The notes under the pieces: model-generated
What the model was told of the DNA's origin: nothing
What the model saw: the letters and a program-made list of their open reading frames with translations, nothing else
The model's database searches: none
Program-made: the position numbers and the translations under genes
Shown: one piece after another, positions 1 to 28,966 of the stretch
Layout of the letters: every line of letters starts with the position of its first letter
How positions within the stretch are numbered: the stretch's first letter is position 1
Source of the DNA: Methanobacteriota archaeon
GTDB lineage: Archaea > Thermoplasmatota > Poseidoniia > Poseidoniales > Poseidoniaceae
Direction of reading: 5' to 3'
Assembly: GCA_018662715.1 (NCBI GenBank)
Contig: JABJFP010000114.1
Span: 1 to 32,933 of the forward strand
DNA: 32,933 nt

Positions 1-138
1 GGAGGTTCTCTCCCACGGGTCTGGATAGATGTCATACGGAGCTTCCAAGCCACCATCATCTATTTTTTGATCTCCAAAACAACCTGCGAGCATGCTCGTT
101 GTAAAGAGCAACATCACGAGCCATGGCTTAACGTCCAT
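1..138 (-). CDS. Secreted lipoprotein-like protein, N-terminal fragment; the gene runs off the left edge of the window
   Basis: The minus strand has no stop codon from 198 down to base 1. The ORF track omits this frame because it is open-ended. Hand translation: MSPKTQASDWFKKVRLTGGN-MDVKPWLVMLLFTTSMLAGCFGDQKIDDGGLEAPYDIYPDPWERTS... The ATG at 138 gives a clean signal peptide: short charged n-region, hydrophobic core, lipobox-like LAGC. The alternative ATG at 198 would overlap the thioredoxin stop by 11 nt. Function unknown. Confidence 0.4.
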   Translation of the reverse strand, partial: MDVKPWLVMLLFTTSMLAGCFGDQKIDDGGLEAPYDIYPDPWERTS

Positions 139-187: not shown

Positions 188-574
188 TTAGGACTCATTG
201 CCTTCTTTTTCAGCCATTTCGGCTCGTACTTCGTCCATGTCAATTTCCTTGATTTTGAGGACAAGGTCTCTAAGGGCGTCTTCGGGGAGGGCTCCGGGCT
301 GCATGAAAACACCAATTCCTTCCTTGAATACAATCGTGGTTGGGATTGACCGAATTCCAAACATTCCAGCAAGTTGTTGCTGGTCTTCTGTGTCAATTTT
401 TCCAAAAACTACGTCGGGAAAATCCTCGGAAACACGCTCGTATACGGGACCATATGCCTTACATGGGCCACACCATTCGGCCCAAAAGTCCAAAATAACG
501 ATATCGTTGTTTTCAATGGTTTCAGCAAATATAGGTTCGGTAAGGTCTTGGGTGGCCATAGCAACTGGTAGCAT
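188..574 (-). CDS. trxA: Thioredoxin
   Basis: Canonical active site WCGPC within DFWAEWCGPCKAYGPV. The downstream thioredoxin-fold motifs are present (GIRSIPTTIVFKEG). An acidic C-terminal extension of about 20 aa follows. Alternative ATG at 559 (MATQD...). Confidence 0.9.
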   Translation of the reverse strand: MLPVAMATQDLTEPIFAETIENNDIVILDFWAEWCGPCKAYGPVYERVSEDFPDVVFGKIDTEDQQQLAGMFGIRSIPTTIVFKEGIGVFMQPGALPEDALRDLVLKIKEIDMDEVRAEMAEKEGNES

Positions 575-653
575 TGGGGCCTTTTGAACTCATGTCCTAC
601 AATCAAAGACAACAAGGGATTGCTTGATGTGCTGAATCGTTCTCCGACCATAC

Positions 654-11415: not shown

Positions 11416-11437
11416 CTAAAGGTCATTGGGGTTATAT

Positions 11438-12052
11438 ATGACCACCGATGAAGAACGCCTAACTGTCGTAAACGTAGTTGCAAGCACCCGTGTTGCTGAA
11501 GAACTTGACCTTCCAGACATCGCTATTCAACTCAACTGCGAGTATGAGCCCGAACAATTTCCTGGTGTCGTTTACCGAGTCACCGAACCAAAACTTGCAA
11601 TCCTCATGTTCCGCTCCGGACGTGCTGTGTGCACTGGCGGAAAGGACGAAGACAACATCCACACAGGTATTGACCGAATGATCAAGGACCTGCGCGCTGC
11701 TGGAATTGAAACCTGGGACCTCAAGGACGTCACCATCGAAGTCCAAAACATGGTCGCTACATATGCACTCCACTACCCCGAAGATTACGACGGTGTTGAC
11801 AAGTTCACAGGCGAGCCTCAAGCAGGAGTCCCTCGCAAACTCAACCTCAACCACTTGACCTTCCACTTGCCCTTTGACAAAGTGGAATACGAGCCAGAAC
11901 AATTCCCAGGACTCATCTACCGACTTGACGACCCTAAGGTCGTATGTCTCATCTTCGGATCAGGTAAGATGGTCATCACCGGCGCCCGTCACAAAGACGA
12001 GATTCTTGAAGCCGTTGAAATCATCAAGGACGAACTTGCTGACCTTCTCTGA
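11438..12052 (+). CDS. tbp: TATA-box binding protein (TBP), two direct repeats, with an insertion of about 20 aa in repeat 2
   Basis: Both repeats are recognisable: VVNVVAS...CEYEPEQFPGVVYRV...FRSGRAVCTGGK and VQNMVAT...VEYEPEQFPGLIYRL...FGSGKMVITGARH. The ATG at 11438 is preferred over the track's TTG at 11426. Confidence 0.95.
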   Translation: MTTDEERLTVVNVVASTRVAEELDLPDIAIQLNCEYEPEQFPGVVYRVTEPKLAILMFRSGRAVCTGGKDEDNIHTGIDRMIKDLRAAGIETWDLKDVTIEVQNMVATYALHYPEDYDGVDKFTGEPQAGVPRKLNLNHLTFHLPFDKVEYEPEQFPGLIYRLDDPKVVCLIFGSGKMVITGARHKDEILEAVEIIKDELADLL

Positions 12053-12069: not shown

Positions 12070-12089
12070 ACGCTTCTGAAGAGAAGCGT
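12070..12089 (+). terminator. Perfect 8-bp hairpin downstream of tbp
   Basis: ACGCTTCT-GAAG-AGAAGCGT begins 18 nt after the tbp stop and ends immediately before the TGATG at 12090-12094. Confidence 0.4.
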
Positions 12090-12091
12090 TG

Positions 12092-15000
12092 ATGGTCTCT
12101 TTCTCACCTGCGTTCAGCATGGGAAGCAGTAGACGGTCCGTCTTCGTGCCCGGCTTGATGGCCGCATTGCTCCTCGTCACGATGATTCCATTGGAACATC
12201 CAGTGCTTGAAGAATCGTCTACGGTGCTGCATTCAGGAGGATACGACCCCGGCGTCTCTGATGTCCCAACATGGAGAATCGGTGACCGCTGGATATACTC
12301 TGGGACCTTTGATCCAACAATTCTTGTTACCGACACGGGAGTTGACGCCACCGTTGGTGAAATTCAAGGCGACACGACTTCTGAAGTGACTGCAATTTCA
12401 ATGCAAAATGTCGACAACATGTCTGTTCTTGCCTATACCCTACGCTCAAGCGCAAACTTCGATAAATCGGGTGTTTCCCTTGAAGGATTCTCCGGAAACG
12501 TATACATTGAGTACACCCAAACTGAATACCTTCGTGTAAGTGATTTATCCCCAATCCGAAGTGACCTCGACATGTACATACGGTTCGTTCCAAGCGGAAT
12601 TTCGTTCTTGGAACAAATCCTTGGAGACATTACGATCTCGACGACCTATTCTCCAGTCAACGAGAATTATGATTTTCCATTACGAGCCAATGAACGTTGG
12701 ACTACGATGACAACGTCCTATGTCCAATGGTCGGGTCAAAGCGATTACATTACGCCCTTCCCGCCTCCAGTAACTGAAACCAATACCACAACCTGGGTTG
12801 TGTCTGATGTGGGGAGACCTACCAATTCCTTTGGTCAATCGACCGACTATGGTGGTTGCAATGGTTCGTATGAGATGGTGTCGTACAACAGCGAAGGTGA
12901 TTCAGAAGGTTACAGATGGTATTGTCCTGAAGTTGGAAACTATGCTTGGTTACACACCGAAGACGATATTGGACTCACCATTGACTTCCGGCTTAAGCGG
13001 TACGACCCTGTAGGAGCATCAGGAGTTGACCCGTATTCAAATCCAGGCTCAAGAGACTCGTGTCTAGAAGTCAATCCCGAACGAAGCATCACCGCTCTCA
13101 ACACACCAATGCAGGTTTGGGTCAATGCATCCTCAAGTTGCTTTACCAATCCTTCTGGAGTCAATCTTGAACTTCATCATGAACACGAAGGGATTGTCAA
13201 ATCCCTGACAACCGCTGCAAACGGAAGCGCATGGACAACCATTGACATCGGGGATGCACGTGATTCATCCGACAGCCAAACGGACTATGCAAGCCACGGT
13301 TTAGTCGCCAAATCTGGTTCCTTTGTGGGAGCGAGCACCGTCACACTGGACCAATATTTGGTAGGGCTGGATGTGTTCGCTGACGCTGAAGCTGCACAAA
13401 TTCTTAGAAACCGAAGCGGTGTAATCACTCCGCTTAATGCCCTATCAGGTTACAATGTCCTTCCTGGTGATGATTTGGAAATTGAAGTCTCGTTTAACAA
13501 TCGGGGGATCACCGCATCCACCGCAACTGAAGCAGTCATCACCTTACCTGGTGGACTCACCAACAAAGTGCCGCTGCCAGCCCTTGAAACCTATCAGGTG
13601 CACAAGGTGGCTCTCAATTGGACCGTACCGATTACCGCGGAAATCGGCACGCAGAGTTTGATGTGGGAAGCAGACCCTGACGGAATCAATTCTGCTGATG
13701 CTAACCCTTCCAACAATCTTGCTATAATCGACCTCTTTGTTGGACGGGTCCCAACTCCCGTTGTCAACGGCTCATCAGGGCTAACCAACGAATATATCCT
13801 CCTTGACGCCTCGGAAAGTTTCGATGAAGATGGAGGCAATGTCTCCTGCAAATTCAACGTGCCATTTGACGATGGGAGCCGCACTTGGTCCACTCTGAAA
13901 GTGCTATCACCAGATTGCATACTCAACTATTCGTGGATTGATGACGGTTCTTATCCTGTAGAAATCACCGTTATCGACGAAGAACGGGATGAAGTGAATC
14001 TCACCGTTATGGTCGACGTCTTGAACCGTGCACCGTTATTAGAGGTCAGAAGTGCACGAACTGAGGCAATGGTAGAGTATCCCATCACACTCTACGCCTA
14101 TGCAAACGATTCGGATTCAGAAGACGTATGGCCTGGCGTGGTTGATATCTATTGGCCTGGTGCAAACTGTAAGGAAGGATACTACACACGAACATGCACG
14201 ACCACATCAACAAAGGAAGGATGGAACACGTTTACTGCCGTGGGGTTGGATGACGATAGCACCATGGCAACGGCAACGATAGACATCCGGTTTACCAATA
14301 TCAAACCGCACAGCGTGAACATACAACTGGTCGACCAAAATGGGCCGATCCTCATGGACGCCCAGAATACATGGCACGTTACCGAAGACCAACTGGTCCT
14401 GGTGAAAGGGCAAGCACAAGACTCCATTGACGACATTGATGAACTCACCCACACGTGGTGGCCCGATGATGCCCAACCCTCACTCATACGCACATTTGAC
14501 GGGCGCACATCCGAATTTGACATGATCTGGCACGAAGCGGGTTTGCACAAAATGAGGCTTGAAATCACGGACTCCGAAGGTGAATCAAGCGGTGTTGAAG
14601 AACGGTGGATTAGTGTAGCAAACATAGCACCCAGCATAGAGCCACTGGCCCAAATTCTACCTATTGCTGAAGGGCAAAGCATTAGCGTGTCGGGAACTTC
14701 TTCCGATTCAAGTTCCGACCAAGAAACACTGATCCGTTGTTGGGACATTGACCCGAGCATGGACTCCAATGATATCGGCAGCGCAGATGACGATTGTGAC
14801 GTCATTGGCGACAATCTTACTATTTCTTGGAACCGAAGTGGAACCCATAAGTTGGTGTACCACGTGACTGATAATGACGGAGCGCACACGAGTGAAGTTC
14901 TGACGGTTGAAGTATTGAACACACCACCTCTCATTCGTACTGCGAACGTAGCATGTGTAGCCTATGAGCCGTGTACGCTCGATGCGCAATCAACGATTGA

Positions 15001-15628
15001 TGCACTCAATGATTTGGAGGGATTAACCATCGTCTGGGACGTTGATATTGAATTTGATAGTAATGAAGATGGTATTCTCGACAACGACGCTGACATCATC
15101 GGTAAGACCGTCACCTATACGTTCCGTAAAGCAGGAACTCAATCCATCAAAGTGATGGCATGGGATGAGGACCCACAGCGACCGGGAACCAAAGTCATCA
15201 CGTTCGCTGTAGCTCCTGCCGATCGTACAGCATTGGAAAATATCGGGGCTTCGTTGGCTGGAGAAGATGCAAATCCAATGATGCAAGGAGGATTGCTCGT
15301 AGTACTGCTTGGACTTTTGTTGATGTTCTCACGACGAAAATCAAAATCCGGAGAAGAAGAGATGTGGGGTGATGTATCTCAGAGCTTGATGGTTGAAAAT
15401 AATGAATCCCGCGAGGATGCACTTGCTGAAAAGCGTCCAAATTCTCCACCGCCAGAATATCTATTCCAAGTAGCCCTAGAAAATGCGCCGAAGACCATTG
15501 GGGTACACGCTTCACCTCCTGCTGATGGAAACGGCCCTCCGTTACCTGAGACTGGACTTCCCGAAGGGTGGACCGCCGAACAATGGTCTTACTACGGCCA
15601 ACAGTGGCTGGAATCGCAGAATCCGTGA
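12092..15628 (+). CDS. Giant type-I surface protein A: novel N-terminal domain, CARDB domain, multiple PKD-like Ig domains, TM anchor, cytoplasmic tail
   Basis: Signal peptide with an RR (SSRRSVFVPGLMAALLLVTMIP). CARDB-like segment (LEIEVSFNNRG...ADPDGINSADANPSNN). Repeated PKD-type endings (GTHKLVYHVTDNDGAHTSEVLTVEVLN and others). TM helix GGLLVVLLGLLLMF (about 15278-15328). The 99-aa tail contains PPPEY, GPPLPE and GLPEGWTAEQWSYYGQQWL. Alternative start ATG 12119; the track start 12089 is a TTG. Confidence 0.85.
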   Translation: MVSFSPAFSMGSSRRSVFVPGLMAALLLVTMIPLEHPVLEESSTVLHSGGYDPGVSDVPTWRIGDRWIYSGTFDPTILVTDTGVDATVGEIQGDTTSEVTAISMQNVDNMSVLAYTLRSSANFDKSGVSLEGFSGNVYIEYTQTEYLRVSDLSPIRSDLDMYIRFVPSGISFLEQILGDITISTTYSPVNENYDFPLRANERWTTMTTSYVQWSGQSDYITPFPPPVTETNTTTWVVSDVGRPTNSFGQSTDYGGCNGSYEMVSYNSEGDSEGYRWYCPEVGNYAWLHTEDDIGLTIDFRLKRYDPVGASGVDPYSNPGSRDSCLEVNPERSITALNTPMQVWVNASSSCFTNPSGVNLELHHEHEGIVKSLTTAANGSAWTTIDIGDARDSSDSQTDYASHGLVAKSGSFVGASTVTLDQYLVGLDVFADAEAAQILRNRSGVITPLNALSGYNVLPGDDLEIEVSFNNRGITASTATEAVITLPGGLTNKVPLPALETYQVHKVALNWTVPITAEIGTQSLMWEADPDGINSADANPSNNLAIIDLFVGRVPTPVVNGSSGLTNEYILLDASESFDEDGGNVSCKFNVPFDDGSRTWSTLKVLSPDCILNYSWIDDGSYPVEITVIDEERDEVNLTVMVDVLNRAPLLEVRSARTEAMVEYPITLYAYANDSDSEDVWPGVVDIYWPGANCKEGYYTRTCTTTSTKEGWNTFTAVGLDDDSTMATATIDIRFTNIKPHSVNIQLVDQNGPILMDAQNTWHVTEDQLVLVKGQAQDSIDDIDELTHTWWPDDAQPSLIRTFDGRTSEFDMIWHEAGLHKMRLEITDSEGESSGVEERWISVANIAPSIEPLAQILPIAEGQSISVSGTSSDSSSDQETLIRCWDIDPSMDSNDIGSADDDCDVIGDNLTISWNRSGTHKLVYHVTDNDGAHTSEVLTVEVLNTPPLIRTANVACVAYEPCTLDAQSTIDALNDLEGLTIVWDVDIEFDSNEDGILDNDADIIGKTVTYTFRKAGTQSIKVMAWDEDPQRPGTKVITFAVAPADRTALENIGASLAGEDANPMMQGGLLVVLLGLLLMFSRRKSKSGEEEMWGDVSQSLMVENNESREDALAEKRPNSPPPEYLFQVALENAPKTIGVHASPPADGNGPPLPETGLPEGWTAEQWSYYGQQWLESQNP
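15554..15610 (+). other. Conserved W/Y-rich cytoplasmic tail motif, copy in protein A
   Basis: GLPEGWTAEQWSYYGQQWL, 7 residues from the C-terminus. It matches the protein B copy at 15 of 19 positions. Confidence 0.8.
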
Positions 15629-15675
15629 AGCGGCAGGGGACACTTCCTAAAGTATGAGAACACCCACGACGATGC

Positions 15676-18600
15676 ATGAACCGAGATATGTGGAAGGCTG
15701 CCTTCGTCGCCGTTTTGTTTCTTCTCACTCCGATGCTAAACCATGTCGGCCCTGCAACCATCCTCTCCGAGGATAACACTCCCGATAACAGTTCGACTGG
15801 AAACCTCTCAGTGGTTGATGTCCCCAATTACAGAATTGGTGATAAGTGGGTGTATGAGACGAAATTTGACGTCGCACAACTGATCGCCCAAGCCAATGTC
15901 TCTGCATCCCTCAACACACTGACAGGAGATACGGTCAACACGGTCACTGACATCCTCTATGAAACCGACGAAAACGGCAAGTCTGTTCTTGTGTACGAAA
16001 TCACCATTGACGGCTCGTTTAGTTCCGGTAATAGTGGGGCGACTCTTGAAGGAACGAGTGGACGGTTGGAAATTGATTACGATGGAACCGACATCATCCG
16101 AGCAAGAGACCTGGCGACGAGGGAATCCAATTTCAATTTGGATGTTACATTTGCTCCTTTTAACCTCGGGTTTTTGAGCTTCACATTGGCTGATATCAAC
16201 TTTGATAACAGTTACACCCCAGCCAAAGAAACCCATGATTTCCCACTTCGAAACGGCGACCAGTGGTACATGCCCTTCCGCGCAGACACAGTGGTAACAG
16301 GTACGTCTGATTATTTTGACCCGTCGGAATTTGATGGAGGTGGACCCGAAAACTATTCATGGCAGGTCATCAAGAATGATGCCCCCAGTGAAGATGGAGA
16401 CACACCGCAATATTTGGGCTGCGACAATTCATACAAAATCTCAGAATGGAATGAATCAGGAGTCAATACCGGATTCAACTGGTACTGCCCCGATGCCCGA
16501 GGAAGCGCCTGGAACCGAATCATCAATCCAGCAGGATTTACCATTGATTGGATTTTGAAAACGTACAACCCAAGTGATTCAAACAGTGTCATTCCAGCCT
16601 CTTCGCCGGGTGGGCGAAACACCAACCTCAATGTAGCAACGGCCTACTCCGCAACCCTTCCGGACTCCACTGAAACCATTACCGTTGATTACAACGTTGC
16701 AGGCTCACCACCAAATCCGATAGCGAATACGAACCTGCAATTGCGCTATGAAATCGCTGAAACGATCCTTAACCCAACGACGGACCAGAATGGAGTAGCT
16801 CAAATTTCACTAAATGTATCCAACATGACCGACACAACGCCAAGTAGCGACGACCATACCAGCAACGGAGTTGTTGTTTACGACCCGGCTGCAAAAATCG
16901 TCGGAGCCGCTACTGTTGTTCAAGACCTCAGCGTTGTAGGAATTGACCTCATTGCCCAGCCCTCATCAGTCATCGTGGAACGCACAAGAGGGGGTGTCAC
17001 GACAACGCTAGGGGCATCGATTGGCTACAACGCATTACCTGGAGACATGATGATGTTCTCATTGCCCGCTCAAAACCGAGGTGTACTCACATCTCCAGCA
17101 ACCTACATGGAAATTGAGACTCCTGATGGAGTCACATACCGAGAGCCATTAACAGCCATTGGACCGTACTCAGAAGAGCGAGTCATCGTCAACTGGGCAG
17201 TCCCTGAGGAACTAGCAGTGGGAGTTAAGAATCTCAAATTCACTGTGGACCCAGACATGAACGTGACCGCCGATACCAACAAGACGAACAATGATGCTAC
17301 CATTGGAATTTTCATTGGTCGCGCCCCAACCGCTCTTTTTGAGGCAAGTGAAGGAAATTACACTTTTGAAAATGTCACCCTCAACGCTACAGGTAGTTAT
17401 GACGAAGATGGCGGAGAAGTCGATTGTGTCTTTGAGATTGAGTCTCGTGTTGGGCTCATCGATGTTATTGAGGCACCTGATTGCTCCACTCATTGGAACT
17501 GGTCAAACAGCGGCACATGGTCTGTCACGGTCATCGTCATCGACGGTGAATTGGACATTGATGAACTTCAAATTGATGTTGTCATCTTGAACCGGGCACC
17601 TAAATTCAACCTTTCCCATGATGCGACTGTCCCCGTGGAGCAATCCATTACCATCAGTGCAATTGACATTCAAGATATCGACACATCGTCCCCAACTGGG
17701 CAGCAGGTAACCATCTCATGGCCAGGATTGGAATGTACGGAAGGGTTGACCCAGCCCACATGCACGTTCATTCCCACAAGCGAAGGGCCCATGAATATCA
17801 CAGCCATTGCAACCGATGACGATGGTGCCACAACAACGGTAACCAGCCCATTGGACGTGTTGAACATCCCACCAACAATTGGTTTCCCAGAATTATGGAC
17901 CGGTGGGGAACAACTGTTGCAGGACGCAAATGGTACCTGGCACCTTGACGAAGACGAAATCGCATTGCTCCGAATCGTAGCCGACGATACGAGCAATGAC
18001 CAAGGCACGCTCATTGTAGAATGGCTTCCCTCTCTTGCCGATGAAAACTGGACCGTCACCAGCGTTGGAATCTCCTCATCTGAAGCCGTTGCATGGACAA
18101 CATCTGGAATCCATACGTTAAACGTCCGAGCAATTGACAGCGACGGTGCAACATCGGCAACTCAAACTGGCGAGGTTTTGATTCACAACGTCGCTCCCAC
18201 CGTCACAGGATTGCCTGGAAATACTCCGGTGTTTGAAGAGGACAACCTCTCTTTAGAAGTCGTTGCAAGCGATACGGCCTCTGACATTGACACCTTGGAG
18301 ATTTGCTGGGACTTTGACGCCACGGCTGACTTGGATAATGACGGAACTAAGGATAACGATTGTGAACTTACAGGAGCATCAATTTCCAAGTCATGGTCAA
18401 CAACTGGTGTCCGTTGGATCACCGTCACTGTCACCGATGACGATGGAGCAACTGCAACTCAATCGATGAATGTCAGCGTACTCAATCTGCCACCAACTGC
18501 AGTCATCACGCTCGGCACCCTTGCTGATAATCTCATGGAGGGAGATAACCTGACCTTGGACGGAACTCAATCTGTTGAGACAGCGGGTGACAAAACGACT

Positions 18601-19272
18601 CTTATCTACCAGTGGGATGCTTCTTTCTTGGACACCGATTTGGATGGTAACAAGGTCGGAGATGTTGACCACCTCGGCGGAACATGGACCATTGAAGACC
18701 TTCCTGCAGGAACATGGAACATCATACTGACCGTTACCGACGATGATGGTGAATTTCAAACAACAGAACTCTCATTCGTGGTATCAGAAGCGCCTTCTGA
18801 AGGATTGTTTGAGAGTATATCCGACACCGTAGGGACGACCATGACATATGTCATCTTTATATTGGGAATCGTGATTGTTGGGCTTGTTGCCTTCTTGCTG
18901 TTTACAAGAAAGCGGCCCAGTGACGAACTCAAGGGATTCTCTGCCTTCGAACAGCCCTTTGAAGCACCACCAGTCGCTGCAGCCCCGGCCCCGGTAGAAG
19001 CCGCACCACAACCAACATCGTACGCACCGCAACCCGCTGCCGCTGTTGCTGAGCCAATCTATCAAGCCCCAGAACCGGTTAACACCGGCCCACCGATTCC
19101 AGCAACCGGACTTCCTGAAGGATGGAACATGGAACAGTGGAATTACTACGGAGAACAATGGCTAGCAGCAAATGCTGCACCAGCACCGGTCCAACAACCC
19201 ATAGTTTCTAACCCTGCACCAGCACCTGCCTCAACGGAGCTACAATCGTTGTTGGACGATCTCGACTTTTGA
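15676..19272 (+). CDS. Giant type-I surface protein B (paralog of A): same N-terminal domain, CARDB, PKD-like repeats, TM anchor, P/A-rich cytoplasmic tail
   Basis: Signal peptide MNRDMWKAAFVAVLFLLTPML. Blocks colinear with A: DVPNYRIGDKWVY, ATLEGTSGRLEIDY, HDFPLRNGDQW, GCDNSYKISEWNESG...WYCPDARGSAW, TIDWILKTYNP. CARDB segment (...DPDMNVTADTNKTNN). PKD-type units (TGVRWITVTVTDDDGATATQSMNVSVLN and others). TM helix TYVIFILGIVIVGLVAFLLF (about 18835-18903). The 122-aa tail contains GLPEGWNMEQWNYYGEQWL and ends in LLDDLDF. Confidence 0.85.
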   Translation: MNRDMWKAAFVAVLFLLTPMLNHVGPATILSEDNTPDNSSTGNLSVVDVPNYRIGDKWVYETKFDVAQLIAQANVSASLNTLTGDTVNTVTDILYETDENGKSVLVYEITIDGSFSSGNSGATLEGTSGRLEIDYDGTDIIRARDLATRESNFNLDVTFAPFNLGFLSFTLADINFDNSYTPAKETHDFPLRNGDQWYMPFRADTVVTGTSDYFDPSEFDGGGPENYSWQVIKNDAPSEDGDTPQYLGCDNSYKISEWNESGVNTGFNWYCPDARGSAWNRIINPAGFTIDWILKTYNPSDSNSVIPASSPGGRNTNLNVATAYSATLPDSTETITVDYNVAGSPPNPIANTNLQLRYEIAETILNPTTDQNGVAQISLNVSNMTDTTPSSDDHTSNGVVVYDPAAKIVGAATVVQDLSVVGIDLIAQPSSVIVERTRGGVTTTLGASIGYNALPGDMMMFSLPAQNRGVLTSPATYMEIETPDGVTYREPLTAIGPYSEERVIVNWAVPEELAVGVKNLKFTVDPDMNVTADTNKTNNDATIGIFIGRAPTALFEASEGNYTFENVTLNATGSYDEDGGEVDCVFEIESRVGLIDVIEAPDCSTHWNWSNSGTWSVTVIVIDGELDIDELQIDVVILNRAPKFNLSHDATVPVEQSITISAIDIQDIDTSSPTGQQVTISWPGLECTEGLTQPTCTFIPTSEGPMNITAIATDDDGATTTVTSPLDVLNIPPTIGFPELWTGGEQLLQDANGTWHLDEDEIALLRIVADDTSNDQGTLIVEWLPSLADENWTVTSVGISSSEAVAWTTSGIHTLNVRAIDSDGATSATQTGEVLIHNVAPTVTGLPGNTPVFEEDNLSLEVVASDTASDIDTLEICWDFDATADLDNDGTKDNDCELTGASISKSWSTTGVRWITVTVTDDDGATATQSMNVSVLNLPPTAVITLGTLADNLMEGDNLTLDGTQSVETAGDKTTLIYQWDASFLDTDLDGNKVGDVDHLGGTWTIEDLPAGTWNIILTVTDDDGEFQTTELSFVVSEAPSEGLFESISDTVGTTMTYVIFILGIVIVGLVAFLLFTRKRPSDELKGFSAFEQPFEAPPVAAAPAPVEAAPQPTSYAPQPAAAVAEPIYQAPEPVNTGPPIPATGLPEGWNMEQWNYYGEQWLAANAAPAPVQQPIVSNPAPAPASTELQSLLDDLDF
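19108..19164 (+). other. Conserved W/Y-rich cytoplasmic tail motif, copy in protein B
   Basis: GLPEGWNMEQWNYYGEQWL, preceded by GPPIPAT (A has GPPLPET). Confidence 0.8.
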
Positions 19273-19281
19273 GGACATAGT

Positions 19282-19854
19282 ATGGCGAATCTGTGGCAAT
19301 TCTTTGGATTACCTGACCCCGAAGGGAGTACAAGCCGAGAGGCAGCCCCTGCAACGACGCTTACACCGGCCCCAACACCTGTTCATGTTGAACAAACCAC
19401 GCTTGAATCAATTGAGCCTGCGCCCGTGTTGGCCAGCAATGCCCCAACTTCTTCACAGCCATCTCTAGAACGGCTCCAGCCTCCATTGAATTGGACTGGC
19501 CCTGTCACGCCCGATGGAGAACCGTTCCACGACCTTGGACTTCATACTGGACGCCCACAAGCACTTCCATCCAAGGCCCTGAGATATGTGGCCCCTGATG
19601 CCATGAAACGCATTCATTCCCAAGCCATACTCCAACGAGTCCTTCAAGGAGATACCGTCATCGTGGATTTACGACCATTGGTCCATATGGAAAGCCACCA
19701 GATGGCCTGCAGAAGAGAATTGAAGCACATGGGAGATGAGGCAGGAGTCAACATCTTCTCCCTTGACCAAGAAGATAAATTACTCATGATACCTGGAATC
19801 AACGTTGTTGTTGACATGGAGAAACATGAACTTGGGCTTACGCCGCTAATGTGA
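19282..19854 (+). CDS. sepF: SepF-like cell-division protein (FtsZ membrane anchor) with an unusually long P/T/A-rich linker
   Basis: The C-terminal core GDTVIVDLRPLVHMESHQMACRRELKHMGDEAGVNIFSLDQEDKLLMIPGINVVVD follows the archaeal SepF pattern: G-x-hIhhDh..., then an acidic helix, then G-x-I, then ll-h-P-x-v-I. The N-terminus MANLWQFFGL could form an amphipathic membrane-targeting helix. A GAGGA Shine-Dalgarno motif overlaps the upstream stop codon. Confidence 0.6.
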   Translation: MANLWQFFGLPDPEGSTSREAAPATTLTPAPTPVHVEQTTLESIEPAPVLASNAPTSSQPSLERLQPPLNWTGPVTPDGEPFHDLGLHTGRPQALPSKALRYVAPDAMKRIHSQAILQRVLQGDTVIVDLRPLVHMESHQMACRRELKHMGDEAGVNIFSLDQEDKLLMIPGINVVVDMEKHELGLTPLM

Positions 19855-23081: not shown

Positions 23082-26000
23082 TCATAGGTCAAATGCAGTC
23101 GAGCAGATTGGACACTTGATTCGTTTTAACATCAAATCTTTGACGGTAAACGCCGCATTACATTCTGGACATTGGGCATCCCGCTTTAGTTCAGGTAGAG
23201 GCATACCACCTGGAAGAGGGAGTTCACCGGGTAAGGGGAGTGGTGGGAGTTGTCCCGGAAGCGGAAGTTCGCCAGGCAAGGGCAGCGGAGGTAATTCGCC
23301 CGGAAGTGGGAGTTCGCCAGGCAAGGGCAGCGCTGGAAGTTGGCCGGGGAGCGGCATGGTTGCTACCATCTCTTGCACTTCTCGCCGTTGTTTCCTCTCC
23401 ATACGGCGTTGAAGACGAGCATTTCCTTCACCGTCTTGCACTTTACGTTCCAACTCTTGAGAAAGAGTTGGGTCTTCAATAACAAGTTCATCCTCCATGA
23501 CCGCACTCATTGAATCACCTACAACAAGGACTGAATCTTCACTGTCTACCGAGAGGAGCGGCCCATCATCGTGTTCGGGCTGAATCATGAGTTCAATAGC
23601 GTCTTGGTGGCCTTCCGATACAAGTACAGCGTCGTTTTCTTTGGAATGCGAACGTCTTACTGCAACAATAACACCAACCAAGAAGAGGCTGATGGTGAGG
23701 ATTGCCCCTGCAAGAATGAGACGTTTTGTTGCATCCGTCCCGGGTAGTGGCCCAAGGAGTAAATCAAGTATTGTGCTTGATTCAATCGAGTCTTGGTTTC
23801 CGGCAAGAGACGCTTGCTTGTAGAGCGAGAACACTCCGTTTGTGGAACTCGAACACAGTAATGTGTCCTCTTCCATGGAGCCTATACCGAACAGAATACC
23901 GTCAACGAGTAGATTCGATAGGCCCTTTACGGCTTGCCCATCCTCGTCAGCCACGAGGCCCCAGCGCACAACTGGGCCGTAATAATTGGTTTCGTCATGG
24001 TAAAGATAAACTCCTTCAGAACGCACTTGAAGATGAACTGAAGTTGCACCAGGCGAGAGGAGGTGGTTCGGTTCATTGATCGACCATACCGAATCGGTCA
24101 CCGCAGAGACGACCCTGGCCGTCCTTCCCATGCCCTCAATCCAAGCCCCAACCAATCGGTCTTCTCCATCAACAACAATGACTTCTAACGCAGCTTCGCC
24201 TACATGATCTCCGACAGATGACTGGAACGTCCACGAAGATTCTGTAAATTCGCCATGCGTATACATCAATCCAGCTCGTTTTATGCCGGTAACATCTTCT
24301 CTGTATTCGTGGTAGAGAATGTGAAGGTATTCGTTACCTAAAGCCACGCTAAGTGCGCTTGAATCGGCGTTGCTAATGTCCACATTTGCAAGGACCGTGA
24401 CGGCATTACCCCATGAAGTACCTCGGTCCGGAGTTGATGATGATAGAACAAAAATCGATGTAATGTCTTGCCATGAGCCACCTGTTGAAAGGTCTCGATG
24501 ATATCCAGCCAGAACCATCGTCCCATCGTATTCATCAAACGTAAAGCCATGATACGTGCCTTCTGTGAGTTTCAAAGGTTGCATGTGATAGTGCTTAGCG
24601 GTTGTTTTTCCAGCGGCAGAGATTGACGTCATGGCAATATCTGTCAGCGTGTAACCTTCTGCATTGATGCTACGACGGCTCCATGCCGCTTGGACCAAAC
24701 CATCATCCCGTTGGTAAACGGCTAACTCTCCACCCCAATCGTTTTCGAGCAGAATATCGCCTGGCATTGCAAGGGATGAAGAGATTGTACGGACATGAAG
24801 TTCTCCGTCCCGAGTTGTAAAGAGCAATCCTCCGTCAGGGAGTCCCACGAATTCAAGTGGTGTTTCTTTTGTAGCCAATGAAAGTGGGGATTTTGATCCC
24901 CCTAGATCGAAGTACCCAACTGTGACATTGAAATACAGTTTACTATGCTCAAATTCAACTCCTGAACCCGTGAGGGTTGCTCGGTATGAAACCACTCCTG
25001 GCTCGGAGACCATATCGGCAAACCGAGCGATGCTAGACCCGGAACCTGTTTCCGAACCCGGTACAAGGGTTAGGGTTACATCATTAGGAGAATCAATAGC
25101 AACATAGAGTCCGGTTTCATAATCTTGCTTCGCAAGACTTACTTTGAGGTTGGTTGCTTGTGTTTCACCAAGGTTATCCACTCGGATGTTGATATCAAAA
25201 GGAGCATCAGGGGTTGGGATCACAGGATTTAATCGGGCAGAACCAGGCAAAAAGCGGAGCATAGGTTCAACCGGACGTTCATCGATTTGGAAGGAAAACG
25301 TGTAGGTGTTATCTTCAGGTTTGGGATCGTTTTGTGCATCGGAGGGGTCAATTAGGACACTAACCTCATGGGAGCCCGCTTCAGTAGCCCACCAATACAG
25401 GGTGGTCTGAACCGATTCCCCTTTGGCAAGGCTGGTGATGTCATCAAAAGATGGGTATGTGGCCGAGTCCTCCCCTGGCCCGTCTAATCGGACATAAATG
25501 TCGTTTGCATCCAAATCTCCGCTGTTGCGGATTTCGAAACGAATTTCAAGAATTGAACCTTCCAAAGCAGAATTCACCTGAAGGCCATCGTCAAAAACCA
25601 CCGGTGCTCCCGTAAAGGAGAAGTCTGGGGATGGAGGGATATTGTCTACGATATACGAACGCATGGAAATGTTGCTTTTGAGCCCAGAGGCATTGAGTGC
25701 CCGGATCTTGATGTCCACTTGTCCATCATCAGAAGCGGTTGAGTCCCAATTGAAGTACCAGTTTACGCTTTTTCCGTCTTCATTGGCAACATCAGTTCCA
25801 AATGTCCAATCTCCACGATCAATTTTGAACTCAATGCGCTCTGCCTCAGTTCCCTCAACCATGCCTGTAAATTCAACAAGTCCTGATAATTTCGTCCCTA
25901 ATGAGGGGCCTGTGAAGTTAATGCCCATGTCTACAATAAGATTCTCATCTGTCACTTCCCCTCCACATTCATCGGCACCTAAAACAAAATCAAGGGCGCA

Positions 26001-27731
26001 AGCAGCATCTACAAGTCCAAAGCCCCATTTGTCATTCCAACGGTCAGAAACAGATGGCTCAGATGCAATTGGTTCACCTGGCTGACTCCTTGACTCGGAT
26101 GAATTTCGTAGAATGTCTTTTATTTCCTCGGGGGTGAGTTCACTATCTGCTTGAAGCATTGCGGCAACGATTCCGGAAACAACTGGCGTAGCCATACTGG
26201 TTCCGCTCTTTGAGTCGTATTCATTATCTGCAAGTGGCCTGTCTGGCTGGCCGGGAATACTTGTACCAATTGCTGCTGAGGCAGAAATAATGTTGCTACC
26301 AAAGGCCGTGATGTCAGGTTTTAATTCATCCCAATCATCATCGTCTCCATCATCCAAACGAGGACCATAATTACTGTAATCTGCGAGGACATCATTCGTT
26401 CTGTTGACTGAATTTCGGTCATCTACGGAACCTATTGAAATCGCCCCATCAGCACTGGCTGGAGATGGTACCCGTTGATTTCCGTCATTCCCCATGGCTA
26501 CGATGCATGCGATTCCGTTCGTAGTTGCAGTATTAACGAGACGAGCCTCAGCCCCTGAACCATTATCTCCATCATCATCTGGATTGAGAGGCGAGGAGAC
26601 TGAACCAAACGACATTGAGGCGACATCAATACCCTTTGCAGAACCGTTACCCGGCCAATCTGTGTCCTTATTGTTAATCATCCATTGCATTCCGCTAATG
26701 GATGCTTGTGAGTTTGTGCCGCCGGAATCAGTGAGGACCTTGATATCAACAAGATAGGCTCCCATTCCGGTTCCGGTGTGTTCGCGATTAGAACCGCCTG
26801 TCCCAATCGCAGTTGCTGCGACGTGAGTGCCGTGGCCTTGCCCGTCATCTGGGTCATCCGTCCCATCGTTGTTTGAACTTGCAGATGTCGCATCGAATCC
26901 AGCGACCCATTTTTGATCATCATAGCTGGTGGCATCACCATCGGGTTCATCGCCCAAATCATCAAAATCGTTGAGAGCACGGTGTTCGTTATCTACGCCG
27001 GTATCCAAGACAGCCACAACGACTCCCACACCGTTATAGCCACGCTCATATGTGCTGTTAGAGTAAGTGTCAGAGGGCATCGACTTTGCTGCTTTGGATG
27101 CGACTCCATTGAAGGGAACCATCACGTTTTGCATTTCGATGACGACAACCCCTTGGAGGTGGTAGATATCCATGAGTGCACTCACAGGAACCTTGTCCAG
27201 AACCACCGCATCGAGGGAATCCAAGACCTGATACCAAGCACCTCGGTCTTCTCCAATCCAGCCATGACTCTCAAGAACTCGTTCTAAATCCTCAAGTTCC
27301 TCGGCTTGTGGCCTCCAAGCATAATCAACGACAATGGCCACAGTCTTTCTCCCATCATCACCGATGATGGACGTTGGAGAGATGGACTCTTGGCCGCTAA
27401 TGACACGCTGTAGGCGGTCATCCATTCCGTTCCAATCCAAATCGGGACCGTAAGCAAGCCACCACATCGAGTCTTCTGATGATGCACGGTCACCTCGGTC
27501 AATCATGCGTGTTGGACGCAAGCAGAGTTCTTCGTCGCACATCAATGGAGGAAGAGAATCAATCAGAATTGGGTCTGTAAAACCGACCTCTTCATCCGCC
27601 GCAGGTTCTTGAGCAAGGGCCATCCCGCTAACATCAGCAATTAAGACGATGAGAGCAAACAAATATGCGGCTCTGCGGTGCGAATTTGTTGCAGAAGATG
27701 TTCTCTCCATTCGCCTCACTATTTCTTGCAT
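23082..27731 (-). CDS. Giant membrane-anchored subtilisin-like (S8) serine protease with CARDB-like domains, C-terminal TM anchor, and a cytoplasmic proline-repeat tail ending in a zinc ribbon
   Basis: The catalytic triad sits in the canonical context: VAVLDTGVD (Asp), GHGTHVAATAIG (His), SGTSMATPVVSGIVAAM (Ser). Signal peptide with an RR (SHRRAAYLFALIVLIADVSGMALA). CARDB-like segments are present (EIRNSGDLDANDIYV...IDPSDAQNDPKPEDN). There is one Asp-box-like TPDRGTSW. TM helix LILAGAILTISLFLVGVIVAV (23658-23720). The tail is 191 aa. ATG 27731 is preceded by a G7 tract 5 nt upstream; the track start GTG 27758 is less likely. Confidence 0.9.
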   Translation of the reverse strand: MQEIVRRMERTSSATNSHRRAAYLFALIVLIADVSGMALAQEPAADEEVGFTDPILIDSLPPLMCDEELCLRPTRMIDRGDRASSEDSMWWLAYGPDLDWNGMDDRLQRVISGQESISPTSIIGDDGRKTVAIVVDYAWRPQAEELEDLERVLESHGWIGEDRGAWYQVLDSLDAVVLDKVPVSALMDIYHLQGVVVIEMQNVMVPFNGVASKAAKSMPSDTYSNSTYERGYNGVGVVVAVLDTGVDNEHRALNDFDDLGDEPDGDATSYDDQKWVAGFDATSASSNNDGTDDPDDGQGHGTHVAATAIGTGGSNREHTGTGMGAYLVDIKVLTDSGGTNSQASISGMQWMINNKDTDWPGNGSAKGIDVASMSFGSVSSPLNPDDDGDNGSGAEARLVNTATTNGIACIVAMGNDGNQRVPSPASADGAISIGSVDDRNSVNRTNDVLADYSNYGPRLDDGDDDDWDELKPDITAFGSNIISASAAIGTSIPGQPDRPLADNEYDSKSGTSMATPVVSGIVAAMLQADSELTPEEIKDILRNSSESRSQPGEPIASEPSVSDRWNDKWGFGLVDAACALDFVLGADECGGEVTDENLIVDMGINFTGPSLGTKLSGLVEFTGMVEGTEAERIEFKIDRGDWTFGTDVANEDGKSVNWYFNWDSTASDDGQVDIKIRALNASGLKSNISMRSYIVDNIPPSPDFSFTGAPVVFDDGLQVNSALEGSILEIRFEIRNSGDLDANDIYVRLDGPGEDSATYPSFDDITSLAKGESVQTTLYWWATEAGSHEVSVLIDPSDAQNDPKPEDNTYTFSFQIDERPVEPMLRFLPGSARLNPVIPTPDAPFDINIRVDNLGETQATNLKVSLAKQDYETGLYVAIDSPNDVTLTLVPGSETGSGSSIARFADMVSEPGVVSYRATLTGSGVEFEHSKLYFNVTVGYFDLGGSKSPLSLATKETPLEFVGLPDGGLLFTTRDGELHVRTISSSLAMPGDILLENDWGGELAVYQRDDGLVQAAWSRRSINAEGYTLTDIAMTSISAAGKTTAKHYHMQPLKLTEGTYHGFTFDEYDGTMVLAGYHRDLSTGGSWQDITSIFVLSSSTPDRGTSWGNAVTVLANVDISNADSSALSVALGNEYLHILYHEYREDVTGIKRAGLMYTHGEFTESSWTFQSSVGDHVGEAALEVIVVDGEDRLVGAWIEGMGRTARVVSAVTDSVWSINEPNHLLSPGATSVHLQVRSEGVYLYHDETNYYGPVVRWGLVADEDGQAVKGLSNLLVDGILFGIGSMEEDTLLCSSSTNGVFSLYKQASLAGNQDSIESSTILDLLLGPLPGTDATKRLILAGAILTISLFLVGVIVAVRRSHSKENDAVLVSEGHQDAIELMIQPEHDDGPLLSVDSEDSVLVVGDSMSAVMEDELVIEDPTLSQELERKVQDGEGNARLQRRMERKQRREVQEMVATMPLPGQLPALPLPGELPLPGELPPLPLPGELPLPGQLPPLPLPGELPLPGGMPLPELKRDAQCPECNAAFTVKDLMLKRIKCPICSTAFDL
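23103..23171 (-). other. C-terminal zinc-ribbon motif of the S8 protease
   Basis: CPECNAAFTVKDLMLKRIKCPIC (CxxC-x15-CxxC), 6 residues from the C-terminus and on the cytoplasmic side of the TM anchor. Confidence 0.7.
23190..23357 (-). repeat. In-frame proline-rich tandem repeat (PLPGELP units; 45-nt / 15-aa super-period)
   Basis: Encodes MPLPGQLPALPLPGELPLPGELPPLPLPGELPLPGQLPPLPLPGELPLPGGMPLPE. The 22-nt string agttcgccaggcaagggcagcg occurs twice on the plus strand (23266-23287 and 23311-23332). Confidence 0.9.
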
Positions 27732-27827
27732 GACAACCCCCCCTTTGAGCCTATCCACTTTTGGGGCTTTGATGATATGGTATCAAGTCACCGGAAAAGC
27801 CATCCAAAAAGGAGCGGAATTCCATCC

Positions 27828-28916
27828 TCAAGACGGAGGCCATTCAAAATGTGAACTTGATGCAGAACACTGCAACCGAGGACCTGATTGTCGCTCTACT
27901 AATCCCAAGGCGCCGTTGCATGTTGGACATGACCCTGCATCAGCAATGTGCTCCATCCAAGCCATCCGTGTTTCGGGTTCGTCGCCAGCTTGAAGTAAAT
28001 TTTTGAAAGGCTCCCGCAGGTGTTTTGGAATGGCGATTCCACGTTCAGTCCACGGGTCTGTGAGTTCATCAAGAGCGATCATTGTGGCTTTCATCTTGCG
28101 AAGCCTTGCCGAGACTGCATCTTGGCCACTCGGACCTCCATCAATCACTCCGAGTTCAACGGGACCTCCGCGAGCAATGAATGGCAAACAGGCATAAGCA
28201 GCAACAAAGCCACCAATGTGTGCCATGTGTGCGATGCCGCTGGATTGCCCTGAATCCATTGTTGAAAGTGCGCGAATGAGTTCCATTCCAAAGTACAGTA
28301 ATGCAATAAAAACAACTGGCCAAGGCCGAATCAAAAGGAGAGGGAATGGAATTTCATCCTTTGGCCAACCTGAAAGGTAAGCCCCTAGGAGGCCAAATGC
28401 GGCCCCTGATGCACCGAGAGCCATGGTGGTTGAACCTGCATTAAACACCGTCCAGCACAACGAGCCGCCGAGGAGGCCAACAAGGTAAACACAGGCAAAT
28501 CGGCCCCTCCCCAAACGCTGCTCCAGTGGAACTCCAACCAAGGCAAGAATAATGACATTGCCAAGAACGTGGGTAAGGTCACCTTGGCTGTGAAGAAATC
28601 CTGCTGAAATTAAGGTGTGCCAAAAGTTTGGAGTTCCTGTCGTTCGTGCAGGAACGAGGACAAAATCTGACCAAACCCAATAATAAACAATATCCCATGA
28701 AGCGAGAAGAGCCCATAATACCTGAACTATCGAGCCAAGGAGAACGCTGACCGTGATTCCCATTGCCAACGAAGTATCGGTCCTGAATGCATATACAATC
28801 GGAATCGTAATGGCCATCATCCACAGAACCAAAACGGACAATTCCGCTGGACTGAAGACGCTCACGGCAAAGGCCATGGCTACCGCTTGAGGTGGTCCTC
28901 TTTGGAGTTGATGCAT
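27828..28916 (-). CDS. Rhomboid-family intramembrane serine protease with a C-terminal soluble extension of about 110 aa ending in a zinc-ribbon-like motif
   Basis: Rhomboid signatures appear in order: FLHSQGDLTHVLGNVII (H-x4-H-x3-N, TM2), ALGASGAAFGLLGAY (GxSG catalytic Ser, TM4), HMAHIGGFVAAY (catalytic His, TM6). One extra N-terminal TM is present. ATG 28916 is preferred because the track's TTG 28961 lies 5 nt from the divergent gene. ATG 28877 is also possible. Confidence 0.85.
   Translation of the reverse strand: MHQLQRGPPQAVAMAFAVSVFSPAELSVLVLWMMAITIPIVYAFRTDTSLAMGITVSVLLGSIVQVLWALLASWDIVYYWVWSDFVLVPARTTGTPNFWHTLISAGFLHSQGDLTHVLGNVIILALVGVPLEQRLGRGRFACVYLVGLLGGSLCWTVFNAGSTTMALGASGAAFGLLGAYLSGWPKDEIPFPLLLIRPWPVVFIALLYFGMELIRALSTMDSGQSSGIAHMAHIGGFVAAYACLPFIARGGPVELGVIDGGPSGQDAVSARLRKMKATMIALDELTDPWTERGIAIPKHLREPFKNLLQAGDEPETRMAWMEHIADAGSCPTCNGALGLVERQSGPRLQCSASSSHFEWPPS
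27849..27929 (-). other. C-terminal zinc-ribbon-like motif of the rhomboid protease
   Basis: CPTCNGALGLVERQSGPRLQCSASSSH (CxxC-x16-C-x5-H). Its first knuckle, CPxCN[AG]A, is the same as in the adjacent S8 protease. Confidence 0.5.
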
Positions 28917-28966
28917 GATTCCAAGCGAATAGGAGGGTTCATCCTTGACCCCCAAGTGCAAGAGCC

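Follow-up and report, generated by a model that had tools for sequence, protein, structure and literature searches.

Two adjacent genes, here called A and B, lie on the forward strand of a 32,933-nt contig of a Poseidoniaceae archaeon (JABJFP010000114.1, assembly GCA_018662715.1; this whole stretch is referred to as the window) and encode giant membrane-anchored surface proteins, each with a head domain at its N-terminal end. We lean towards the view that A and B are two members of an anciently duplicated core cell-envelope protein family of the Poseidoniales (Marine Group II, MGII), and that the head is a diverged DUF3108-like barrel. A giant surface protein with an Ig-type stalk is in itself an ordinary kind of protein. 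The head, as judged by profile comparison, appears to represent an archaeal branch, new and strongly diverged, of a barrel family that is known but uncharacterised, and the conserved pair, its tails and a linked small gene are undescribed in the literature that we searched. Queries on MGII surface, adhesion or S-layer proteins returned no description of A or B and nothing on a Poseidoniales S-layer, and in databases the homologues go by no other name than 'hypothetical protein' or 'PKD repeat protein'.

Among the uncultured plankton, Marine Group II archaea are one of the most abundant groups, and we know of no experimental work on their cell envelope. A and B are concrete candidates for an MGII envelope scaffold or fixed receptor and could serve as targets for metaproteomics, antibodies or cryo-electron tomography. 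The head assignment, if correct, extends a bacterial domain of unknown function (DUF3108-like/YmcC-like) into archaeal surface proteins.

Probable relation of the head domain to DUF3108-like proteins

A preliminary description of A and B, made by reading the sequence, could not assign the head to any family. Direct searches gave the same answer: neither head had a sequence match in Pfam, NCBIfam or the PDB (the latter searched by phmmer and by profile), none of 30 MGII heads matched the Pfam head-type families, PF21347 and PF11306 included, even at E ≤ 10, and a profile of the MGII head alignment (A2) matched no PDB entry, 4FVS and 3FZX included. A match of the head to SRP receptor beta (E 0.03) was treated as chance. 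Word-indexed searches with the heads returned 67 matches for A and 103 for B, with Poseidoniales or Thermoplasmatota as the only sources, but these were fragments of ≤ 481 residues, many of them frameshifted; full-length relatives were recovered only by an exhaustive profile search. The latter identified 291 representative clusters with the head domain (E ≤ 1e-3), including Thalassarchaeaceae proteins of ∼1,200 residues, a family of 430-470 residues and Thermoplasmata proteins with two or three heads. A scan of viral contigs yielded no relatives.

The Thermoplasmata proteins are the intermediates through which the head can be connected to a known family. Comparison of A2 with the alignment of Thermoplasmata heads (A3) by hhalign gave a probability of 99.8% (E 3.5e-28) over 267 columns, i.e. 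the full domain. Among A3-type proteins, P0289 matched PF21347 with 29.1 bits (gathering threshold 27), the head of P0301 stayed below threshold at 26.5 bits, and a third homologue search, which used the distant A3 heads as profile, returned four matches, two of them annotated as PF21347 (P0344, P0345). A3 also aligned with the DUF3108_like domains (alignment A4, three domains only) at a probability of 97.9% (E 4.6e-13). When the whole PDB was searched with the A3 profile, only 4fvs (E 3.1e-4) and 3fzx (E 0.1) were found, and the A4 profile found the same two entries. DUF3108 proteins have the YmcC fold of 3FZX (PMC4364669).

The order of conserved motifs agrees with this chain. Three of the four motifs of the DUF3108-like signature, PxWxxGDxWxY, YDFPLxxGxxW and WY(S/C)PEVxN, are present and collinear in the heads, and the fourth, PAGTF, has become GGCxxSY. 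Every motif pair quoted in the preliminary description was recovered in its place in A and B, namely (A / B) DVPTWRIGDRWIY / DVPNYRIGDKWVY, VSLEGFSGNVYIEY / ATLEGTSGRLEIDY, YDFPLRANERW / HDFPLRNGDQW, GCNGSYEM...YRWYCPEVGNYAW / GCDNSYKI...FNWYCPDARGSAW and TIDFRLKRYDP / TIDWILKTYNP; on the alignments, these motifs appear to be largely the superfamily signature.

We also modelled both heads with AlphaFold2 (AF2) from the ortholog alignments, and compared the models with the PDB using Foldseek. The models (A, pLDDT 87.1 and pTM 0.84; B, pLDDT 90.6 and pTM 0.87) are all-beta with ∼11-14 long antiparallel strands, 11 in the case of A. For both heads the first match was EipB/DUF1849 (6ntr; E 2e-3 for A and 6.6e-4 for B), with TM-scores of 0.37-0.47 over both heads (0.41/0.47 for B). 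YmcC (2in5, 0.27-0.38), VioE, LolA (≤ 0.28) and autotransporter barrels followed in both lists, while 4fvs (rank 5, 0.29/0.35), 3fzx (rank 13, 0.28/0.34) and ependymin-related proteins appeared for the A model only. All matches thus fell below a TM-score of ∼0.5, which we took as the line for a shared fold. The structural check suggested in the preliminary description returned weak neighbours and no confident match to a characterised fold. Autotransporter and other outer membrane protein barrels were rejected as a generic likeness of long strands, being membrane-embedded barrels with TM-scores ≤ 0.37.

Collectively, sequence and structure point the same way: the head would belong, in diverged and enlarged form, to the DUF3108-like/YmcC-like superfamily of open barrels, as an up-and-down antiparallel open beta-barrel of ∼255 residues. 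Several observations speak against this assignment. The direct comparison of A2 with A4 gave a probability of only 8% (E 0.004) and aligned no more than the YDFPL motif, a weak test because A4 holds just three domains; all MGII heads remain under the Pfam threshold, so that the DUF3108-like assignment hangs on intermediates; and the TM-scores do not exceed 0.47. With the direct comparison not significant and the TM-scores below 0.5, the head is to be regarded as a variant reached transitively and not as a plain member.

Like the proteins of PF21347 (DUF3108_like) and PF11306 (DUF3108), represented by 4FVS (BDI_3050) and 3FZX (BF2203), the heads are exported all-beta domains of long antiparallel strands with the same motif order, and their final strand likewise ends in L.SY/L.xY. 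They differ in size (∼255 versus ∼180-200 residues, the extra length lying between the first and second motifs), in the lack of a direct hidden Markov model match, in GGCxxSY for PAGTF and in a lineage-specific Cys pair. Moreover, the MGII head tips an archaeal type-I membrane protein of 1,200 residues, whereas the known members are small bacterial lipoproteins or exported proteins. EipB of Brucella, the best structural neighbour of both models, is exported as well and forms a 14-stranded open antiparallel 'beta-spiral' barrel with a conserved disulfide and a role in envelope integrity (10.1101/551135). In contrast to the heads it is a free periplasmic alphaproteobacterial monomer; sequence identity is ∼9-10%, the TM-score is below 0.5, no sequence profile links the two, and the EipB disulfide C69-C278 joins different elements than the Cys pair of the head.

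The DUF3108_like family has no established function. The preliminary description had named a confident match to a characterised family as the result that would contradict it; since DUF3108_like is uncharacterised, the chain described above leads to no such family. What did not stand is the reading that the head is an orphan, that is, a structurally novel ligand-binding domain without relatives outside A and B. The absence of direct Pfam, NCBIfam and PDB sequence matches is in its favour, as is the Foldseek result, in which the A model had no match at E ≤ 1e-3 and the B model only 6ntr. Against this, the domain recurs in the 291 clusters, multi-copy Thermoplasmata arrangements included, and the full-length profile link to A3 continues to PF21347, 4FVS and 3FZX. 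On these profile links (A2-A3, A3-A4, A3-4fvs) an orphan head already appears largely refuted, and we consider it improbable.

The head domain was also observed in other settings. In P0264, P0289 and P0294, all from Thermoplasmata metagenome-assembled genomes (MAGs), a head-like domain occurs two or three times in proteins of 1,500-2,300 residues that also contain Flg_new_2 and Big_7 domains, which marks it as a mobile module and not only an N-terminal cap. The short family of 430-470 residues (L083 10001-11311; P0211, P0218, P0224, P0234, P0239, P0243, P0254 and P0273) combines a signal peptide, a head with the same Cys pair and one sandwich domain, has no transmembrane helix, and often ends in ..RF. 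Its gene stands alone elsewhere in the genome and adjoins that of a divergent 840-residue protein with faint Pfam matches (Cadherin_4, Big_9).

Conservation of the head and its cysteine pair

Orthologues were collected from a scan of GTDB species genomes, which yielded 306 loci; the best 80 of these 306 were examined, all from Poseidoniaceae and including the original MG-II genome CM001443.1. From these loci we obtained 62 orthologues of A and 56 of B, each of the latter located immediately downstream of an A orthologue. Ratios of non-synonymous to synonymous substitution (dN/dS) were calculated on codon alignments of both sets by the Nei-Gojobori method, for pairs with dS of 0.3-1.2. The head is the most conserved region of each protein, with amino acid identities of 0.79 (A) and 0.71 (B) and dN/dS of 0.025 (A) and 0.048 (B). 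Elsewhere in the proteins dN/dS was 0.02-0.16, with 0.02-0.12 in the stalk domains, and 0.087 (A) and 0.035 (B) in a conserved motif of the cytoplasmic tail; signal peptide and cytoplasmic linker were the most variable parts. No sign of diversifying selection was seen by this method across the A and B ortholog sets. The purifying selection on the head is very strong and speaks against its being the variable tip of an adhesin.

The conservation of the Cys pair and of the FPLR..W motif, which had been proposed as a test, was borne out among the orthologues. The two cysteines are present in 128 of 132 and 116 of 119 MGII A/B-type sequences that cover the respective columns, and are invariant in A2. 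In the DUF3108-like relatives the same alignment positions are taken by the A of PAGTF and the S of WYSPEV. The change of PAGTF to GGCxxSY together with that of the WYSPEV serine to cysteine makes the pair specific to the MGII branch; it thus appears to be an innovation of the MGII clade on a DUF3108-like scaffold. The two residues may form a disulfide that staples a beta-hairpin.

Tandem arrangement and age of the duplication

The ORF (open reading frame) coordinates agree with the preliminary description in that A and B are co-directional and 47 nt apart. They are also colinear throughout, as had been stated: BLASTP aligned them over 1,182 columns (558 bits, E = 0, 33% identity, 50% positives), from the signal peptide through the C-terminal tail. 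The annotated start of A is probably not the true one; the N-termini of the orthologues align to the second Met, which places the start at nt 12119 (MGSSRRSVF...) and not at 12092.

In every one of the best 80 loci with enough downstream sequence, two head-bearing ORFs of ∼1,200 residues stand back to back. In practically all of the sampled Poseidoniaceae genomes the A-then-B order recurs, each time downstream of the TBP gene, and both paralogues are found at the same locus in ∼56 Poseidoniaceae species genomes. The gene order kept around them is LTD-amidohydrolase (LTD, lamin-tail domain), CysRS, CCG/Fe-S protein, GHMP kinase, TBP, A, B, a small ORF, Maf, KaiC-like and GlmS, and the same neighbours surround the pair in a polished long-read contig (L001). 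In the window A and B are accompanied by genes for TBP (11426-12049), NMD3, CysRS, a KaiC/RadA-like ATPase and GlmS, which mark the window as archaeal, and its matches carry the names Poseidoniales or Poseidonia; its nearest relatives are Poseidoniaceae/Poseidonia MAGs, with 99% identity in loci L002 and L003. One Thalassarchaeaceae (MGIIb) locus shows the same upstream synteny, and two head paralogues follow TBP there, with an ORF of 351 residues between them. Synteny of the locus extends over the order. The head protein is encoded only once in two other lineages, which indicates a deep duplication that is not shared by the whole of the wider family.

The proposal of an old duplication kept in tandem is thus upheld by the shared locus in ∼56 Poseidoniaceae genomes and by the two copies in a Thalassarchaeaceae locus. 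The preliminary description had itself raised mis-assembly as a possible objection. Beyond the adjacency of two similar genes, nothing favours an assembly artefact or a trivially recent duplication; the copies are only 33% identical, they form separate ortholog sets in the same order in ∼56 independent genomes, and their tails differ consistently. We therefore rejected this explanation, whose probability we regard as negligible.

The spacer between A and B exists in two forms. In Poseidonia-type loci (spacers of L007-L040 and L041-L052 were compared) it measures ∼45-55 nt and contains a conserved TATA-like GGACATYCTCTTTTGTATCAG ∼25 nt before the ATG of B; the corresponding element of the window could be B's own promoter. 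In other Poseidoniaceae genera the spacer is 20 nt long and starts with TAGGAG, which resembles a Shine-Dalgarno sequence and overlaps the stop codon of A. The two forms suggest that the coupling of B to A in transcription or translation differs between genera.

Domain architecture of A and B

The features of A, B and the small ORF downstream are collected in Table 1. Both proteins have the PKD domains, the N-terminal hydrophobic segment and the one C-terminal transmembrane helix of PKD/CARDB surface proteins, and A also has a CARDB match, in line with their initial description as giant surface proteins. They appear from these features to be large surface-exposed type-I membrane proteins with the head in distal position; the signal peptide at one end and the helix at the other put the head at the tip, beyond a stalk of what would be seven beta-sandwich domains, namely one CarboxypepD_reg/MG-like, one CARDB and five PKD-like domains. 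At ∼4 nm per Ig-like domain, the stalk may be ∼30 nm long. Both proteins are acidic (pI ∼4.1), with 15 N-x-S/T sequons in A and 20 in B. A twin-arginine signal for A (SRRSVF) was rejected, because the RR is not conserved in the orthologues.

For the domain that follows the head in A, PF13620 was matched by 3 of 30 orthologues (best E 7e-6) and is precomputed on ortholog P0016; B gave a weak match to MG4. The CARDB match of A (PF07705) reached 21.2 bits with the full protein, compared with a cutoff of 22.7, and 24.8 bits with a sub-fragment. In the PKD stalk, PKD_4 scored 43.1 bits in A and 36.6 bits in B (threshold 27); A also matched PKD (33.8 bits), and B gave a weak match to Big_9. Of the two downstream domain types recognised earlier, PKD is thus found by Pfam in both proteins and CARDB in A only. 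The PKD stalk of A contains paired cysteines at 586/609, 693/702, 883/902 and 955/961.

Table 1. Features of genes A and B and of the downstream small ORF (positions in the window).
Feature	Position	Strand	Description and evidence
Gene A	12092..15628 (ORF 12089/12092-15628)	+	1,178-residue type-I membrane surface protein; ORF and translation
A signal	within residues 1-54, hydrophobic 15-39	+	N-terminal hydrophobic segment
A head	12254..13009, residues 55-306	+	all-beta; AF2 model and hhalign chain
A Cys pair codons	12857..12925	+	C256 at 12857-12859, C278 at 12923-12925
A second domain	13049..13396, residues ∼320-435	+	beta-sandwich, CarboxypepD_reg/MG-like
A CARDB	13397..13747, residues ∼436-552	+	Pfam PF07705
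A stalk	13748..15217, residues ∼553-1042	+	about five PKD/Ig-like domains; collinear with B stalk
A transmembrane helix	15269..15334, residues 1060-1081	+	Kyte-Doolittle; followed by RRKSK (positive-inside)
A cytoplasmic tail	residues 1082-1178	+	95-120 residues in A/B
A tail motif	15554..15613	+	GLPEGWTAEQWSYYGQQWL; regular expression, dN/dS
A-B spacer element	15641..15656	+	CTTCCTAAAGTATGAG, TATA-like box ∼25 nt upstream of B start codon
Gene B	15676..19272	+	1,198-residue paralogue of A
B head	15811..16572, residues 46-299	+	AF2 model
B Cys pair codons	16420..16488	+	C249 at 16420-16422, C271 at 16486-16488
B beta-sandwich, CARDB-equivalent and PKD-like stalk	16612..18795	+	Pfam; collinear with A
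B transmembrane helix	18823..18915, residues 1050-1080	+	Kyte-Doolittle, mean 3.09; followed by TRKRP
B tail motif	19108..19167	+	GLPEGWNMEQWNYYGEQWL; regular expression, dN/dS
B C-terminal peptide	19249..19269	+	LLDDLDF-COOH; ortholog comparison
Small ORF	19282..19854	+	190 residues, 9 nt after B stop, GAGGA upstream; sequence and synteny

Cytoplasmic tails and the downstream small ORF

The tails of A and B share the consensus GLPEGWxxEQWxxYGxQ(W/Y)L, which has no Pfam match. A regular expression of this motif, run against 82 sequences (the window and 81 loci), gave 126 matches, all in A and B orthologues. B carries an additional peptide at its very end: 54 of 56 B orthologues (L002-L080) terminate in LLDD(L/F)D(F/L), whereas Poseidoniaceae A orthologues lack this peptide and stop just past the tail motif. 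Similar acidic-hydrophobic C-terminal ends are present in most other clades of the head-protein family. The LLDDLDF end of B resembles the SepF-binding part of FtsZ C-terminal tails; in M. smithii the SepF groove is occupied by the FtsZ residues LDDFI, in C. glutamicum by DLDV (PMC8178401).

The small ORF comes after B in 56 loci; in MGIIb and in the two lineages with a single copy it likewise accompanies the gene for the head protein. Its product consists of an invariant N-terminus (MxxLWQFFGLPDP), a Pro-rich linker and a core of ∼95 residues. Archaeal SepF, the membrane anchor of FtsZ, is laid out in the same three parts, with a short membrane peptide at the N-terminus that a flexible linker joins to a core of ∼95 residues (PMC8178401); the N-terminal peptide of the small ORF differs in being hydrophobic but not clearly amphipathic. 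When a profile of the core was run against the PDB, the top match was twice the archaeal SepF-like 3zie, at E 1.5 and, with more diverse orthologues, at E 0.057. The Pfam SepF family (PF04472) matched one of eight orthologues (E 0.22), and hhalign against a 3zie fragment gave a probability of 11%; none of these SepF tests (Pfam, PDB phmmer, hhalign) was significant. The small ORF may, on its layout and these matches, encode a diverged SepF-like protein.

It is conceivable, though a long shot, that the locus encodes a trans-envelope module peculiar to Poseidoniales, in which the stalked surface proteins extend their tails into the cytoplasm, the LLDDLDF-COOH end of B mimics an FtsZ tail, and the tails dock on the SepF-like protein encoded 9 nt downstream. 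The outer surface, by way of a canopy or S-layer insertion, would then be physically coupled to the FtsZ/SepF division machinery, a link for which we know of no case in any archaeon. A possibly SepF-like gene next to an FtsZ-tail-like peptide makes this a testable, if speculative, hypothesis of surface-to-divisome coupling.

Proposed role of A and B

With this level of constraint, universal presence and a fixed housekeeping synteny, the genes are more in keeping with a core component of the envelope than with an adhesin for a particular niche. We propose that A and B may be constitutive components of the envelope, either an S-layer-like canopy or a receptor for a fixed partner, and not variable adhesins. 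They would probably act as a hetero-complex, with the heads making conserved contacts to proteins or hydrophobic ligands, and the tails binding a conserved partner in the cytoplasm by way of GLPEGWxxEQWxxYGxQWL, which both proteins have, and of LLDDLDF-COOH, which is confined to B. The arguments for an envelope-scaffold role are conservation, synteny and architecture; on the other side, the single-copy lineages indicate that a heterodimer is not obligatory for the family, and the archaeal S-layer proteins known so far do not typically have a long conserved tail in the cytoplasm.

Archaeal S-layer glycoproteins such as Haloferax csg contain Ig-like domains and a C-terminal membrane anchor. A and B share with them the strings of beta-sandwiches, the acidic pI, many N-glycosylation sequons, the C-terminal anchor, core-genome status and strong conservation; the domain string, acidity, sequons and anchor are not specific to S-layer proteins. 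They differ by the conserved cytoplasmic tail of 95-120 residues, the non-Ig barrel head and the presence of two paralogues; also, an archaeosortase-type signal is not evident in A or B.

MGII proteins rich in PKD and CARDB domains are usually assumed to be adhesins, and A and B could accordingly be read as long fibrillar adhesins for particles or prey, with the head binding an algal, detrital or polymer surface. Their PKD and CARDB stalk, distal non-Ig head and membrane anchor fit such a function, secreted degradative proteins (an S8 peptidase with CARDB and the LTD-amidohydrolase) are encoded nearby, and distant relatives carry the adhesin-type repeats Flg_new_2 and Big_7. However, the part that would meet the surface is the most conserved one, the whole protein is under constraint of housekeeping level, the genes are present universally and keep the same housekeeping neighbours, and the conserved cytoplasmic tails would be left unexplained. 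We consider this function unlikely.

We rate as about equally unlikely a capture or transfer of hydrophobic ligands, in which a hydrophobic cavity formed by the curved sheet of the head would bind lipids or other apolar molecules at the cell surface, either to import them or to handle lipids of the envelope; LolA/LolB, VioE and possibly EipB would be the models. A curved sheet is common to all structural neighbours, and several of these bind lipids or hydrophobic molecules (LolA, VioE, ependymin-related proteins, Osh6); the lumen of EipB is ∼66% hydrophobic (10.1101/551135), and a defined small ligand would fit the very strong conservation. The TM-scores to such proteins are low (0.2-0.47), though, DUF3108/YmcC-like proteins have no demonstrated ligand, and a distance of ∼30 nm from the membrane would be odd for a binder of this kind. 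We retain the constitutive envelope component as the preferred reading of A and B.

Additional observations on the locus and the database sequences

Other genes of the window encode further large exported proteins. The S8 subtilase (23082-27758, minus strand) is another giant envelope protein, with 1,558 residues, a CARDB domain and a weak C-terminal match to an MJ0042-type zinc ribbon (E 0.037); a rhomboid protease gene (27828-28961) adjoins it. The LTD-amidohydrolase (654-3230, plus strand) has 858 residues and occupies the same position in MGIIa and MGIIb loci; its orthologue in L001 shows EF-hand matches in addition.

Database entries for A and B are in many cases short fragments whose C-termini run out of frame (L001 10001-13165; matches P0001-P0170), and A is split into four ORFs even in the polished L001. 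In public data both genes, long and rich in repeats as they are, often appear interrupted through assembly or indel errors. Both genes are intact, with a head 87% identical, in an archaeal A-B locus on a contig labelled 'Verrucomicrobiales bacterium isolate ARS100' (L021, NZEQ01000049.1), which is almost certainly a mis-binned Poseidoniaceae contig within a bacterial MAG.

Finally, a perfect 8-bp inverted repeat with a 4-nt loop (ACGCTTCT GAAG AGAAGCGT; 12070-12089, plus strand) is situated between the TBP stop codon (12050-12052) and the annotated start of A, 2 nt before the ATG at 12092. It could be a TBP terminator or processing hairpin; with a start of A at 12119, it could also belong to the leader of A.

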